The position numbers were made by a program, and so were the translations under genes. This document shows positions 5,344 to 8,014 of a stretch of DNA of 10,031 nt, piece by piece (within the stretch, counting starts at the first letter, position 1; each line of letters begins with the position of its first letter). Location of the stretch: the UHGV virus genome UHGV-0117372; one strand, written 5' to 3'. The notes under the pieces were generated by a model. The model made no database searches. It was given only the letters and a program-made list of their open reading frames with translations, and was not told where the DNA came from. The stretch comes from a virus.

Positions 5344-5345
5344 AC

Positions 5346-5389
5346 ATTTGCTCTAATAAATTGTGTTTTTTAGCTACCGATGTTACATT
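5346..5389 (+). promoter_or_regulatory. C1-operator-like site (Op51-like) overlapping a candidate promoter for the immI-like module
   Basis: TTTGCTCTAATAAATTG at 5347-5363 matches the C1 operator consensus at 15 of 17 positions. It overlaps a candidate -35 TTGTGT (5361-5366) and -10 TACATT (5384-5389) with a 17-bp spacer, starting 3 bp after the pacB stop. Confidence 0.55.
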
Positions 5390-5395
5390 GAACCT

Positions 5396-5517
5396 GACCT
5401 CTTGCGCCTTGAGGCATTTTCGGTTTATGCTTATCAGGCACCTCATTAAAACGGGTGCCGGGATTGGCCTCCCGCTTAAGTCTAAGGCGATACAGACGCC
5501 GCTCGCGTCTTTTTTTT
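5396..5517 (+). ncRNA. Candidate structured small RNA or leader (c4-like antisense RNA analogue?) ending in an intrinsic terminator
   Basis: No convincing ORF with an RBS. Stem-loops at GGCACC 5437-5442 / GGTGCC 5454-5459 and CGGGA 5459-5463 / TCCCG 5470-5474, then a terminator hairpin. The loop TTGGCCT (5464-5470) is complementary to AGGCCAA (5600-5606) in the icd leader. Boundaries are approximate and the RNA is not demonstrated. Confidence 0.3.
5494..5517 (+). terminator. Rho-independent terminator or attenuator
   Basis: Stem AGACGC (5494-5499) pairs with GCGTCT (5505-5510) around a 5-nt loop and is followed by a run of T to 5517. Confidence 0.5.
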
Positions 5518-5682
5518 GTATCGGCGTACACGCACACCTCTACAATGGTGGGCTGTATGGGGCTACCTTCGGGTAGGCTGGTTACCTTGGACGCCAGTAA
5601 GGCCAACTCCGTACAGTCCACCGCCAGCAAGATTGGTCTCTTCTGCGGTGGTTACATACCAACGTCTAAGGAGGCTGCCAAT

Positions 5683-5904
5683 ATGGCTACTATCCCTACC
5701 CCAACTCATCCTGAATTTATCTGGCGCTTTTACTCCTGCCAAAAACGTCACTATCACTTCGTTATTGCACCAACAGAAGATGAGGCCCGCTCTCAGCTTC
5801 CTGACGCCCCATGTATTTTCTCTGCCCGTTTTTCCACTGATTCACGCAATTCTCTCAGTTACTGGTGCCTCCCTGTTAACGCTTCTGTTCAGGAGGGGCT
5901 ATGA
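5683..5904 (+). CDS. icd: Icd-like host cell division inhibitor, 73 aa
   Basis: ATG 5683 has a strong AAGGAGG RBS 8 nt upstream. The 73-aa product (MATIPTPTHPEFIWRFYSC...EDEARSQL...) has the FIW...EARxQL pattern of Icd-like proteins. Its stop overlaps the ant start (ATGA), as icd and ant1 do in P1 immI. The 149-aa ORF in the track is this frame extended upstream across the terminator. Confidence 0.7.
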   Translation: MATIPTPTHPEFIWRFYSCQKRHYHFVIAPTEDEARSQLPDAPCIFSARFSTDSRNSLSYWCLPVNASVQEGL

Positions 5905-7019
5905 GAACGTCATTAGTCACCCGTGAAGAGATGATCGAGGCAATTGAACAGCACACTGCCTGTATCAGCACCAGGGATATTCCCAGTGTTATAGCCAACT
6001 ACTTCATGATCACTAAACAACTTTACCGGAGAAAGGACAAGAACGCGGTTCACCGTATCCTGCTGTCTGATATTCGCGAATACCTGCTCGAACAGGGTCA
6101 TCTGAATTACGCAACCGTCGCAGCCGAAGCACGCAAGGAGGCACACAGAATGAAAGCAACTAACGTTAAATCAGAAAAAATTCATGCACCTTCAGTTCAG
6201 GAATCGGAGCTGGTGGTTGTTCAGAATCAGTCTGATGAAATTCCCGTTCTGGAATGGCAGGGAGTGCGTGTAGTGACAACCGAGACTCTTGCTAGAGGGT
6301 ATGGGACAGAAACAATCCGTATTCGCCAAAATCATCATGAGAACAAAGTACGCTTTGTTGAAGGGAAGCACTTTTTCAAAGTTGAAGGAGAATCATTGCG
6401 CGAGTTGAAGCACAGAGTAGCTTTAAACTACTCTGTAAAAATTGCTCGCAATGTTCGCTCACTCACCCTCTGGACAGAACGCGGCGCAGCCCGCCACGCT
6501 AAAATGCTCGAAACCGATCAGGCATGGGCATTCTTTGAAAAACTGGAAGACAGCTACTTCCGACAAAAAGAACAGCAACCGATCGCAATCCCCCAGACGC
6601 TTCCTGAAGCCCTACGCCTGGCTGCCGAACTGGCTGAACAAAAGCAACTTCTGGAACAGAAAGCCCACCAGCTAAATCAGCAGCTGGTGGCCGCCGCTCC
6701 TAAAGTCGATTTTGCCGACCGGGTATCAGTAGCTAAAGGGATCCTGATTGGGAATTTTGCAAAGGTTGTTGGACTTAAGCAAAACGCGCTGTTTGTCTGG
6801 TTACGGGAGAACGGCATCCTGATAGCGTCCGGTGGACGTAAAAATGTGCCGTTCCAGCAGTACATCAACGCGGGGTATTTCACGGTGAAAGAAGTGGTGC
6901 TGGATGATGAAGATGGCTACCAGATACGGTTGACGCCTCAATTAACGGGTAAAGGCCAGCAGTGGTTGACGCGTAAACTGCTCGATGCTGGCTTGTTAAA
7001 ACCGGTGGCAGCTGAATAA
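5901..7019 (+). CDS. ant: Antirepressor Ant (ORF6N plus KilA-C/ANT domains), 372 aa, with an in-frame internal start at 6151 giving a 289-aa form (Ant1/Ant2-like)
   Basis: The central region VLEWQGVRVVTTETLARGYG...FVEGKHFF fits the ORF6N antirepressor N-domain, and the C-terminal region (KVDFADRVSVAKGILIGNFAKVVG...) fits the KilA-C/ANT domain. AGGAGG precedes ATG 5901, and AAGGAGG sits 8 nt before the in-frame ATG 6151, mirroring the P1 ant1/ant2 nested pair. Confidence 0.8.
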   Translation: MRTSLVTREEMIEAIEQHTACISTRDIPSVIANYFMITKQLYRRKDKNAVHRILLSDIREYLLEQGHLNYATVAAEARKEAHRMKATNVKSEKIHAPSVQESELVVVQNQSDEIPVLEWQGVRVVTTETLARGYGTETIRIRQNHHENKVRFVEGKHFFKVEGESLRELKHRVALNYSVKIARNVRSLTLWTERGAARHAKMLETDQAWAFFEKLEDSYFRQKEQQPIAIPQTLPEALRLAAELAEQKQLLEQKAHQLNQQLVAAAPKVDFADRVSVAKGILIGNFAKVVGLKQNALFVWLRENGILIASGGRKNVPFQQYINAGYFTVKEVVLDDEDGYQIRLTPQLTGKGQQWLTRKLLDAGLLKPVAAE

Positions 7020-7026
7020 TGGAAGA

Positions 7027-7048
7027 ATGCCCGGTTGATGCCGGGCAT
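7027..7048. terminator. Bidirectional hairpin between convergent ant and c1
   Basis: Perfect 8-bp stem ATGCCCGG / CCGGGCAT with a 6-nt loop, placed 8 bp after the ant stop and 4 bp before the c1 stop. Flanks are moderately T-rich on both strands. Confidence 0.55.
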
Positions 7049-7051
7049 AAT

Positions 7052-7903
7052 TTATTGCGCGCTTTCGGGGTTGTCGTTTACTGGCTGCCCCTTCTTGGTT
7101 TTACGACTGCGCGTAACTGATGCGGCTGACTTAACCTTTTTCTCTTCGCGAGTGATGGCAATTTGTTTTTTTACATTTTCAATATCTGCCAGGCGATATA
7201 TTTTTGCTTGCGGCCAGCGGTCGCAGATGATCGGTTCTATGGAGTCATAAAGGCTAAATTTTGCTTTTTCGAATTCACCGTTGATGATAATTCCATCACG
7301 GAGAGTTTCATCGCAGATAAACACGCCACACAGTGGCACATGGTAACTAACTGATTTACCATCATTGTAGTTAGGGCTACTGGAAATGTAGTGGACGCGC
7401 AGCATTGTTTCGCTAAAGCCGTGTACGCGCATACGGAATTTTTCATCCTCCGGGTACTGCCTCATTAGCTCTTTTGTTGCTTCCAGGTTCTCTATGTATT
7501 TCGCACTGTGCTCATTGATCCCCGCGCTTTTTTGGATGCGAATGTCCTTATCAATCAGATGAATAATGCGGCCAGCGGTCATGTTGACGCTGTTCACAGC
7601 TTCTGTCTGATAAGTTGTAACCTTGCGCACACCGCGAAGGATGTTAGGCACTGGATATAAAATAGTCTTTGGGATATTGAGGTCTGGGTACTGTTCCAGT
7701 TCCCGCGCCATTAAAGTCCATTTATCAATTTCAGCCTGAATGCTGTCAGTTTCTTTGAACGGTAGAACGACAACCGGGCGTACAGGACGACCGTCGCTGG
7801 CTGTATCAACGTGTTGGGCGCGTGCAACAGCTTTTTTTAGAAAGAGATCCCTGAAGCTGACGAACTCCTGGTACAGTTGTTCGCCGTAGACATAATTTAT
7901 CAT
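7052..7903 (-). CDS. c1: C1 repressor of lysis (immC), 283 aa
   Basis: The 283-aa ORF starting MINYVYGEQLYQEF matches P1 C1 in size and N-terminus as remembered. A GGAGGAGG RBS lies upstream on the minus strand and coi is directly upstream. Confidence 0.93.
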   Translation of the reverse strand: MINYVYGEQLYQEFVSFRDLFLKKAVARAQHVDTASDGRPVRPVVVLPFKETDSIQAEIDKWTLMARELEQYPDLNIPKTILYPVPNILRGVRKVTTYQTEAVNSVNMTAGRIIHLIDKDIRIQKSAGINEHSAKYIENLEATKELMRQYPEDEKFRMRVHGFSETMLRVHYISSSPNYNDGKSVSYHVPLCGVFICDETLRDGIIINGEFEKAKFSLYDSIEPIICDRWPQAKIYRLADIENVKKQIAITREEKKVKSAASVTRSRKTKKGQPVNDNPESAQ

Positions 7904-7997: not shown

Positions 7998-8014
7998 AGA
8001 TTTATTAGTGCATT
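7998..8014 (-). promoter_or_regulatory. C1-operator-like site between coi and c1
   Basis: The reverse complement of 7998-8014 (AATGCACTAATAAATCT) matches the C1 operator consensus at 14 of 17 positions. A weaker site with a perfect TTGCTCTAA core lies inside coi at about 8170-8186 (11 of 17). Confidence 0.4.

Follow-up and report, generated by a model that had tools for sequence, protein, structure and literature searches.

Does the antirepressor gene at this locus yield one protein or two? The window, by which we mean the whole stretch of 10,031 nt analyzed here (from UHGV virus genome UHGV-0117372), contains an ant reading frame in which an earlier note had seen two nested starts, each with a strong ribosome-binding site and together arranged as in P1 Ant1/Ant2. 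Judging from sequence features and annotated relatives, we find that this one reading frame very probably yields two antirepressors, a long and a short one, and that the gene in all likelihood belongs to a complete extra immI-like module comprising a C1 operator, an a1/b1 leader, C4, icd, and ant.

Two starts in one antirepressor frame

The ORF listing places ant at 5901..7019 on the + strand (372 aa, ATG start), and the sequence at the long-form start reads caggaggggcTATGAgaacg. The ATG (5901-5903) lies behind an AGGAGG and overlaps the icd stop codon TGA (5902-5904) in an ATGA, as the earlier note had described. A second in-frame ATG (6150-6152) is codon 84, so that the proposed N-terminal extension of 83 residues is right. 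The AAGGAGG described 8 nt upstream of this internal start is also present, while the start itself lies at 6150 rather than at the claimed 6151. The signals of the two starts and their predicted products are as follows:

5891-5896, + strand: long-form Shine-Dalgarno AGGAGG, with a 4-nt spacer to ATG 5901
6135-6141, + strand: internal Shine-Dalgarno AAGGAGG, 8 nt before ATG 6150
5901..7019, + strand: long form, Ant1-like, 372 aa, calculated mass 42.47 kDa
6150..7019, + strand: short form, Ant2-like, 289 aa, 32.76 kDa, with the same stop codon as the long form

These calculated masses agree with the approximately 42 and 32 kDa previously claimed for the pair. Counted over both strands, the 10-kb window has four AGGAGG-N3-10-ATG motifs versus 0.53 expected (1/200 shuffles reaches four), and all four of these strong sites fall on gene starts, namely icd (5683), ant1 (5901), the internal ATG (6150), and c1 (7903, minus strand). 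Among the 19 in-frame ATG, GTG, and TTG codons of the ORF, a 6-7-nt Shine-Dalgarno match at a distance of 4-11 nt is found only at codons 1 and 84.

The RNA has little structure around 6150 (−6.6 kcal/mol vs. −10.8 for shuffles, z +1.6); this region belongs to the 13% least structured sequence windows here, with the P1 equivalent among the 6% least structured. The ant1 start region is more structured than 83% of sequence windows, and its Shine-Dalgarno is predicted to pair with CCUCC (5868-5872) in the icd 3′ end; pairing with the icd 3′ end recurs in most window-type variants (66-nt contexts), and P1-type loci have another pairing at this start. Possible sequestration of the ant1 Shine-Dalgarno is weakly supported, because shuffled sequences are predicted to fold just as stably as the 80 nt around ATG 5901 (z −0.37).

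Both domains foreseen in the earlier note were found by Pfam search: ORF6N (PF10543) at residues 116-202 (E 2e-19, 70.1 bits with a cut-off of 27.8) and ANT/KilAC (PF03374) at residues 260-361 (E 4e-31, 107.9 bits with a cut-off of 25.3). The long form has the order 83-aa N-terminal extension, linker, ORF6N, and KilAC domain, and phrog_63 ("anti-repressor Ant") matches it over its full length (E 2e-131). The extension gave a best E of 0.095 in Pfam and no match in NCBIfam or among PDB sequences; across Pfam, NCBIfam, PDB sequences, and PHROG, only phrog_63 covers it. All phages of the collection that carry the extension belong to Punavirus. A homologue search with the extension returned mostly fragments, and the short form returned, among the matches listed, only near-identical E. 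coli proteins. A poor AlphaFold2 model of the 372 aa (12-sequence alignment, pLDDT 45, pTM 0.27) gives no more than a hint of four helices (residues 8-87) and of a disordered linker (residues 88-116). Small ORFs also lie inside 5901-7019 in other frames and on the minus strand; neither the P1 annotation nor PGAP lists such an ORF there.

Conservation of the internal start and the extension

The earlier note had staked its reading on conservation of the internal Shine-Dalgarno in homologues. We find AAGGAGG-N8-ATG kept in 91/91 related loci, a figure that partly reflects ascertainment and shared ancestry because the locus sample is shallow, with essentially two extension lineages, and RKEAHRM itself was among the two peptides with which the loci were collected. 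The string AAGGAGGCACA[C/T]AG[A/G]ATG stands at codon 84 in all 91 loci (66 unique DNA sequences). Codons 79-81 are invariant across loci, and of 86 sliding windows none is less diverse at synonymous sites than the 7-codon window from codon 79 (0.024 vs. a mean of 0.119). Between the window and P1, the extension has 64% nucleotide identity, and the 19-mer at 6135 is its only block with at least 18/19 bases identical.

The start of the long form and the extension behind it are also conserved. The ATGA overlap with icd is kept in 90/91 loci, and the long-form Shine-Dalgarno is AGGAGG in the window and window-type loci, stronger than the GGGGGG of P1 and P1-type loci. Aligned without gaps to residues 1-83 of P1 Ant1, the extension is identical at 52/83 positions (63%, E 5e-40), and its reading frame is open where the other two frames contain 4-9 stops. 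Its dN against P1 is 0.28 with dS saturated, which argues that the long frame is translated; as judged by these substitution rates, the extension is under purifying selection against P1.

The foremost alternative is that only the long form is made, with the internal site kept for the peptide RKEAHRM, by unchanged inheritance, or as a Shine-Dalgarno-like pause site. Residues RKEAHRM may indeed be constrained for protein reasons, and a comparison of only two deep lineages, collected in part with that very peptide, leaves room for this reading, as do public annotations of the window variant, which give one CDS (PGAP and phage records annotate only the long form). However, the codons AAG GAG GCA never vary, at a place where synonymous changes would abolish the Shine-Dalgarno, whereas in the rest of the extension just 40% of the positions with an identical residue also share the codon. 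Both lineages have open RNA around the site, and its P1 homologue is recorded as the start of ant2, complete with a ribosome-binding site of its own. We therefore consider production of the long form alone unlikely.

An immI-type module in the pacB/c1 gap

The ant frame closes a series of regulatory elements located between pacB (ends 5343) and c1 (ends 7052), where the P1 pacB/c1 gap is 24 bp. The parts of this module and its boundary with c1 are as follows:

5347..5363, + strand: C1-repressor operator-like site TTTGCTCTAATAAATTG at the module head, matching P1 Oc4/Op51
5361-5389, + strand: putative weak promoter (TTGTGT 5361-5366, 17 nt, TACATT 5384-5389), placed solely by alignment with P1 P2c4
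5438..5515, + strand: leader RNA element of the Rfam isrK type (RF01394, 60.8 bits, gathering score 50)
5464-5470, + strand: C4 target a1, TTGGCCT, in the leader, complementary to the C4 loops
5480-5487, + strand: C4 target b1, GTCTAAGG, in the leader, complementary to the C4 loops
5494-5510, + strand: stem that, with a T-run, forms the intrinsic terminator of the leader in a scan for terminator-like sites
5541..5628, + strand: C4 antisense RNA gene (RF01695, 75.9 bits, gathering score 45, E 7e-14, full length)
5585-5592, + strand: C4 b′ loop, CCTTGGAC
5600-5606, + strand: C4 a′ segment, AGGCCAA
5633-5639, + strand: a2 target TTGGTCT in the icd leader, homologous to the annotated P1 a2
5664-5671, + strand: b2 target GTCTAAGG, overlapping the icd Shine-Dalgarno, homologous to the annotated P1 b2
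5683..5904, + strand: icd, 73 aa, with AGGAGG at 5669-5674 upstream
7027..7048, no strand assigned: GC-rich hairpin of 9 pairs, a terminator-like site that separates the ant stop from the convergent c1 stop
7052..7903, minus strand: c1 repressor gene, annotated as C1 in RCS47 and in an identical plasmid, outside the inserted module

The operator-like site has two mismatches to ATTGCTCTAATAAATTT (two such sites in the window vs. 0.04 expected) and aligns, column by column, with the operator annotated in P1, marking it as a putative C1-controlled operator at the operon promoter. A consensus scan did not pick up the promoter at 5361-5389. Downstream, the leader element occupies the place of the P1 c4-a1b1 element RF03163. 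The C4 RNA is complementary to both of its targets in the icd leader: b′ CCTTGGAC pairs with b2 GTCTAAGG and a′ AGGCCAA with a2 TTGGTCT, with one G-U pair each, and the partners covary across loci in at least nine b′/b2 and at least five a′/a2 combinations. The icd product matches NCBIfam phage_ICD_like NF033153 (E 2.6e-13) and phrog_1426 (E 1e-45), is equal in length to P1 icd with a dN/dS of 0.10 against it, and is annotated by PGAP in the identical plasmid. A GTG ORF at 5455-5904 (149 aa, with a Pfam Phage_ASH match) was rejected as a gene, since it crosses the leader terminator and the C4 RNA gene. The hairpin at 7027..7048 is likely the terminator for the module, and by analogy with P1 the c1 product is the presumed target of the antirepressor.

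Many P1-like phage-plasmids of E. coli carry the module. Among known sequences, DNA identity to the window is 87-92% for JL22 and RCS47, 98.9% for vB_EcoM-673R5, and 100% for the sequenced E. coli plasmids CP056627.1 and NZ_CP145673.1, and at least 80% of the module is kept in 290 PLSDB plasmids. Many carriers also hold a canonical immI copy, which in three pairs of loci (L005/L008, L006/L009, and L007/L010) is found in the same contig or genome, and truncated or frameshifted copies exist (e.g., 673R5, with 257 aa, and L029). These two observations would fit a decaying, nonfunctional immI duplicate carried passively in the pacB/c1 gap, but the window has every part intact, many covarying combinations of C4 with its targets exist, the 290 plasmids retain most of the module, and the substitution rates of icd and of the extension stand against decay; we judge such a relic very improbable.

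Relatives of the module and its proposed working

The nested ant arrangement has been known in P1 since 1989, and the P1/P7 immI operon c4-icd-ant1/ant2 was reportedly described by Heisig and colleagues in that year and by Riedel and colleagues in 1993; for P1, we took the experimental basis from GenBank annotations and secondary citations. In the P1 genome (AF234172), icd spans 48470-48691, ant1 48688-49731, and ant2 48937-49731, so that its ATGA overlap and its offset of 249 nt (83 codons) equal those of the window. The original P1 immI record (X15639) annotates a ribosome-binding site at 774-780 and the ant2 start at 789, equal to the window in its 7-nt site and 8-nt spacer. These P1 annotations of ant1, ant2, and the internal site go back to the first experiments on the locus. 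P1 also has the same upstream order of C1 operator, a1/b1 leader, C4 RNA, a2/b2, and icd (73 aa), with ATGA leading into ant1. The claim that the window reproduces the P1 Ant1/Ant2 arrangement thus held for overlap, offset, ribosome-binding site, and spacer, and with the 63% identity of the extension the arrangement is homologous to that of P1 and goes beyond mere similarity.

The two loci nonetheless differ in several respects. The P1 immI module lies between sim and kilA (kilA-repL) and not in the pacB/c1 gap; its C4 specificity is different (b2 GTTAGTGA in P1 vs. GTCTAAGG in the window, and a2 TTGACAG vs. TTGGTCT); and its leader is of the c4-a1b1 type, whereas that of the window matches Rfam isrK and has its own terminator. 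The predicted products are 347/264 aa in P1 versus 372/289 aa in the window. The C-terminal KilAC domains are ~95% identical, but homology to P1 Ant2 does not run throughout the Ant2 part, where only the C-terminal ~150 residues align well: the middle domain (~98-225) is ORF6N in the window, whereas P1 Ant has neither ORF6N nor any Pfam match there. By this alignment, the window protein is not a simple P1 Ant orthologue. In P1, both polypeptides are known from GenBank notes and PMC8546580 to be made and to inactivate C1 as a complex; PMC8546580 describes Ant1 and Ant2 as an antirepressor heterodimer, the synthesis of which C4 RNA represses. Because the middle domain differs, complex formation and C1 binding are not simply transferable from P1 to the window proteins.

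Closer relatives are found among other P1-like phage-plasmids. RCS47, JL22, and pTZ20_1P, among others, carry an "ant" insertion of the same architecture at the same pacB/c1 locus; the records and papers for these elements give a single ant CDS and do not mention the C4 RNA, the nested short form, or the whole immI-type module. RCS47 and JL22 have other C4/target specificities, and their ORF6N segment is 60-70% diverged. Rfam and the published description also suggest a relationship with the isrK-orf45-anrP locus of the Salmonella prophage Gifsy-1. There, a leader RNA of the IsrK type, which has a terminator of its own, precedes a small ORF that ends in an AUGA overlap with the start of the antirepressor gene, and translational coupling has been shown experimentally (PMC4825925). 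That locus belongs to a lambdoid prophage; nested long and short forms are not reported there, and the role of a C4-like RNA is not so framed (PMC4825925).

Free-standing ORF6N-KilAC phage antirepressors (~245-275 aa), also represented by PHROG anti-repressor families, have the same two-domain body as the short form but are without the 83-residue extension, and hence without the nested two-product arrangement. In a search of all representatives, their residues ~2-15 align to query ~102-117 and the alignments continue to the C-terminus; since these homologues begin there, the predicted short form is a complete antirepressor-type protein. That only the short form works, with the 5901 start little used or unused and the 83 codons ahead of the short form serving chiefly as a spacer or for regulation, is extremely unlikely: thousands of ORF6N-KilAC relatives do without such an extension, and the Shine-Dalgarno at 5901 stands close to its start codon (4-nt spacer) with partial pairing predicted, yet the extension frame is open and its residues and substitution rates are constrained between lineages, the ATGA overlap is almost universally kept, and P1 Ant1 is reported in the active complex.

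Taken together, a highly probable overall explanation, and the best one, is an extra immI-type module with a long/short antirepressor pair. From the sequence and from P1 annotation and literature, we infer that both proteins are made, the long one coupled to icd and the short one initiated independently, and, by analogy, that they form a complex with C1 as the target. In the lysogen, C4 RNA would pair with a2 and b2 over the icd ribosome-binding site, leaving icd untranslated and ant silent through polarity. Once C4 control is relieved, icd would be translated, and termination at TGA 5902-5904 with restart at ATG 5901, whose Shine-Dalgarno may otherwise be partly base-paired, would couple the long form to icd translation. 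Other ribosomes would load directly at the open AAGGAGG-N8-ATG at 6150 to produce the short form. Both forms would have ORF6N and KilAC in common, differing solely in the presumably helical 83-residue extension, and may act as a complex that inactivates the C1 repressor, as Ant1/Ant2 do in P1. The module is not a new mechanism and is an expected relative of the known P1 c4–icd–ant system.

P1-type and ORF6N-type bodies both occur behind the same extension in related loci. One speculative possibility, to which we give rather little weight, is that the extension and internal ribosome-binding site form a portable "two-product adaptor" that recombines in P1-like elements onto P1-type bodies, ORF6N-type bodies, or the two in tandem, so that any body behind it would yield a long/short pair under an independently addressable C4. 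Two modules could then provide two routes of C1 inactivation, or one could act against a competitor's repressor, and the IsrK-type a1/b1 leader could serve as a trans decoy that titrates C4. If this is true, two modules with different C4 specificities and sensor domains would be separately triggered routes.

Hundreds of E. coli and Salmonella P1-like phage-plasmids carry the module, many of them with resistance genes. The practical gain lies in annotation, which at present gives an "Icd-like" and a single "Ant" CDS and leaves the C4 RNA, the a1/b1 leader, and the short form unannotated. Seen as a second complete immI-type switch that differs in C4 specificity and has had its middle domain swapped, the module accounts for the "ant insertion between pacB and c1" of comparative papers, and it suggests two independently controlled antirepressor routes, which bears on phage-plasmid induction and mutual exclusion.

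Two predicted starts in the ant frame

The ant open reading frame runs from 5901 to 7019 on the plus strand and encodes 372 aa, as the earlier note described, and its start codon (ATG 5901–5903) overlaps the upstream stop codon (TGA 5902–5904) as ATGA; the bases at the icd/ant junction read caggaggggcTATGAgaacg. The internal in-frame ATG is present at codon 84, although it lies at 6150–6152, one base earlier than the position first assigned to it (6151). Predicted masses are 42.47 kDa for the long form (372 aa) and 32.76 kDa for the short form (289 aa), in line with the earlier estimates. Each start is preceded by a strong Shine-Dalgarno sequence:

Shine-Dalgarno sequences of the two ant starts
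5891–5896, plus strand: AGGAGG, four bases ahead of ATG 5901 (long form)
6135–6141, plus strand: AAGGAGG, 8-nt spacer to ATG 6150 (short form)

Across both strands, the 10-kb window has four instances of AGGAGG-N3-10-ATG (0.53 expected), and each of them marks a start: icd at 5683, the long ant form at 5901, the internal ATG at 6150 and, on the minus strand, c1 at 7903. The ant frame contains 19 in-frame ATG/GTG/TTG codons, and a 6–7-nt Shine-Dalgarno match accompanies just two of them, codons 1 and 84. The product carries the anticipated Pfam domains, ORF6N (residues 116–202) and ANT/KilAC (260–361). The N-terminal 83 residues that distinguish the long form (the extension) have no match in Pfam, NCBIfam or PDB sequences, and an AlphaFold model of the protein (pLDDT 45) was too poor for use.

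Several observations support the internal start. The internal Shine-Dalgarno and ATG read AAGGAGGCACA[C/T]AG[A/G]ATG at codon 84 in 91/91 related loci, a sample of essentially two lineages collected with two probe peptides, one of which (RKEAHRM) is encoded across this very site. Codons 79–81 (AAG GAG GCA) are invariant in 66 unique DNA sequences; among 86 windows, the 7-codon one that begins at codon 79 shows the least synonymous diversity (0.024 vs. a mean of 0.119). Between the window and P1 the extension has 64% DNA identity, with the same codon at 40% of identical residues, and the 19-mer at 6135 is its sole block with at least 18/19 matches. The RNA near 6150 has little structure (−6.6 vs. 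−10.8 kcal/mol for shuffles): it ranks within the least structured 13% of windows here, and the homologous P1 site within the least structured 6%. Among 1.8 billion representative proteins searched, two-domain ORF6N-KilAC relatives are ~245–275 aa long and their residues ~2–15 align to query residues ~102–117, and the short form therefore corresponds to a complete ORF6N-KilAC-type protein with a ~25-residue leader. The extension occurs in only a few P1-like proteins among the best 150 representatives listed, and in the phage collection in Punavirus only.

Several signatures also indicate that the long form is translated: the extension is free of stops in this frame but has 4–9 in the other two, its dN relative to P1 is 0.28 at saturated dS, and 90/91 loci retain the ATGA overlap with icd. 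The long-form Shine-Dalgarno has a short spacer and is predicted to pair with CCUCC (5868–5872) in the icd 3′ end in most window-type variants, and the start site exceeds 83% of windows in structure. Because the 80-nt stretch there does not fold better than its shuffles do (z −0.37), we take this pairing as only a weak hint of translational coupling to icd.

The arrangement resembles P1 ant1/ant2 and is homologous to it in all tested features except the middle domain and genomic location. P1 (AF234172; icd 48470–48691, ant1 48688–49731, ant2 48937–49731) has the same 249-nt (83-codon) offset, the same 7-nt site and the same 8-nt spacer, and its immI deposit (X15639) annotates a ribosome-binding site at 774–780 and the ant2 start at 789. 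P1 Ant1 residues 1–83 are 63% identical to the extension without gaps (E 5e-40), and the C-terminal ~150 residues about 95% identical. In contrast, the middle domain is ORF6N in the window, RCS47 and JL22, while this part of P1 Ant lacks both a Pfam match and a convincing alignment. The P1 record describes icd as "apparently required for expression of ant". In the related Gifsy-1 locus isrK-orf45-anrP, whose leader, small ORF, AUGA and antirepressor follow the same layout as the window, experiments showed that the antirepressor is coupled via AUGA to the small ORF upstream of it (PMC4825925).

An immI-type module between pacB and c1

The window derives from a P1-like (Punavirus) phage-plasmid with the gene order pdcB, lpa, pacA, pacB, module, c1 (minus strand), coi, cre. 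Since pacB and c1 are only 24 bp apart in P1, the 1.7 kb found there (5344–7051) is an insertion relative to P1. Judged by its sequence, the inserted DNA makes up an entire immI-type operon, which besides ant contains:

Features of the module
5347–5363: C1-operator-like site, 2 mismatches to consensus, aligns with P1 Oc4
5438–5515: leader RNA, Rfam isrK match (60.8 bits), intrinsic terminator at its end
5541–5628: C4 antisense RNA gene (75.9 bits)
5683–5904, plus strand: icd (73 aa), NF033153 and phrog_1426 matches
7027–7048: hairpin after ant, last part of the module

Upstream of c1 there is a further site resembling the C1 operator (AATGCACTAATAAATCT, 3 mismatches; 7998–8014, minus strand), at a position corresponding to the P1 Oc1 operators. 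Two E. coli plasmids, CP056627.1 and NZ_CP145673.1, match the segment 5344–7050 at 100% identity, and 290 PLSDB plasmids contain at least 80% of it. Among phage records, vB_EcoM-673R5 (98.9%), RCS47 (91.7%) and JL22 (87.1%) come nearest. Public identical sequence is annotated as Icd-like and Ant. An insertion between pacB and c1 has been mentioned in the literature on P1-like elements, RCS47 included; we found no description there of the insert as an entire immI-type module that brings its own C4 RNA, nor of a nested short form kept in its ant. In the vB_EcoM-673R5 record ant is shortened to 257 aa under the name "DNA binding protein Roi" (L002 4499–5272) and c1 is split into fragments; both breaks are likely frameshifts or assembly errors.

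C4 RNA and its targets

The C4 RNA is complementary to paired sites both in the leader and before icd. Its b′ loop CCTTGGAC matches the octamer GTCTAAGG at 5664–5671 (b2), which overlaps the icd Shine-Dalgarno, and again at 5480–5487 (b1); its a′ segment AGGCCAA matches TTGGTCT at 5633–5639 (a2) and TTGGCCT at 5464–5470 (a1). At least nine b′/b2 and five a′/a2 combinations covary across related loci, P1's and P7-like ones among them, which is good evidence for a functional regulatory RNA. The covariation also shows that the module has a C4 specificity separate from P1's. C4/target combinations are shuffled relative to ant extension and body type (window 5541–5671, loci L001–L089), which suggests that immI specificities have diversified and recombined extensively in P1-like elements.

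The leader (5438–5515) contains both C4 targets, a1 and b1, and its own terminator, and the short terminated RNA could therefore be a C4 decoy. Rfam isrK, an Hfq-binding sRNA, matches exactly at the place of the P1 c4-a1b1 element (RF03163). A ~80-nt processed RNA from "orf45" was described in Gifsy-1 (PMC4825925), and the comparison suggests that isrK loci may be C4-type immI modules. Pfam Phage_ASH (PF10554, E 8e-10) matches over about 5512–5718 in the translation of a 149-aa GTG ORF (5455–5904) that crosses the leader terminator and C4 RNA gene into icd; this family probably models translated C4-type RNA genes, and c4 was deposited as a CDS in X15639.

Mosaic antirepressors and a proposed mechanism

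From its sequence relationships, the ant family is a mosaic with joints near the internal start. Behind the extension, 72 of 91 related loci have an ORF6N-class body and 14 a P1-class body. The window-type extension is also joined to a P1-type body (L080–L089; protein P0166), and the 467-aa protein P0165 carries extension, P1-type body, ORF6N and KilAC in tandem, with both bodies in one protein. In two proteins (P0034, P0035) the N-terminus is unrelated (PF25716) and the junction falls at ...DIREYLLEQGH..., after which RKEAHRM and Ant2-like sequence are retained. On an E. coli chromosome, a 138-aa ORF (P0025; L093 4001–4417) ends in a 72%-identical copy of extension residues 5–67, has no antirepressor body and adjoins ProQ-like, SSB and DUF927 primase genes that belong to an integrated element; ant genes are therefore not the only ones to hold the extension domain. 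The module and a P1-type immI-like copy occur together in three GTDB assemblies (L005/L008 on one contig, L006/L009, L007/L010), and some IMG/VR contigs hold up to three extension-bearing ant copies (L014, L046 and L080 on one contig).

Sequence anatomy, homology, conservation, covariation and selection are demonstrated above; for the two proteins, their coupling, their complex and its target in this variant, we infer the following scheme. In the lysogen, C1 and C4 would keep the module silent, C4 pairing with a2 and b2 to block icd translation and with it ant expression, as in P1. On relief, ribosomes that have translated icd would start again at 5901 and produce the long form, the short form would arise from independent initiation at 6150, and the two would form a complex that inactivates C1, by analogy with P1. 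It is conceivable, if rather unlikely, that the extension and internal start are a portable adaptor turning different antirepressor bodies into long/short pairs, in which case carriers of two modules would be able to inactivate C1 by two routes, each addressed independently.
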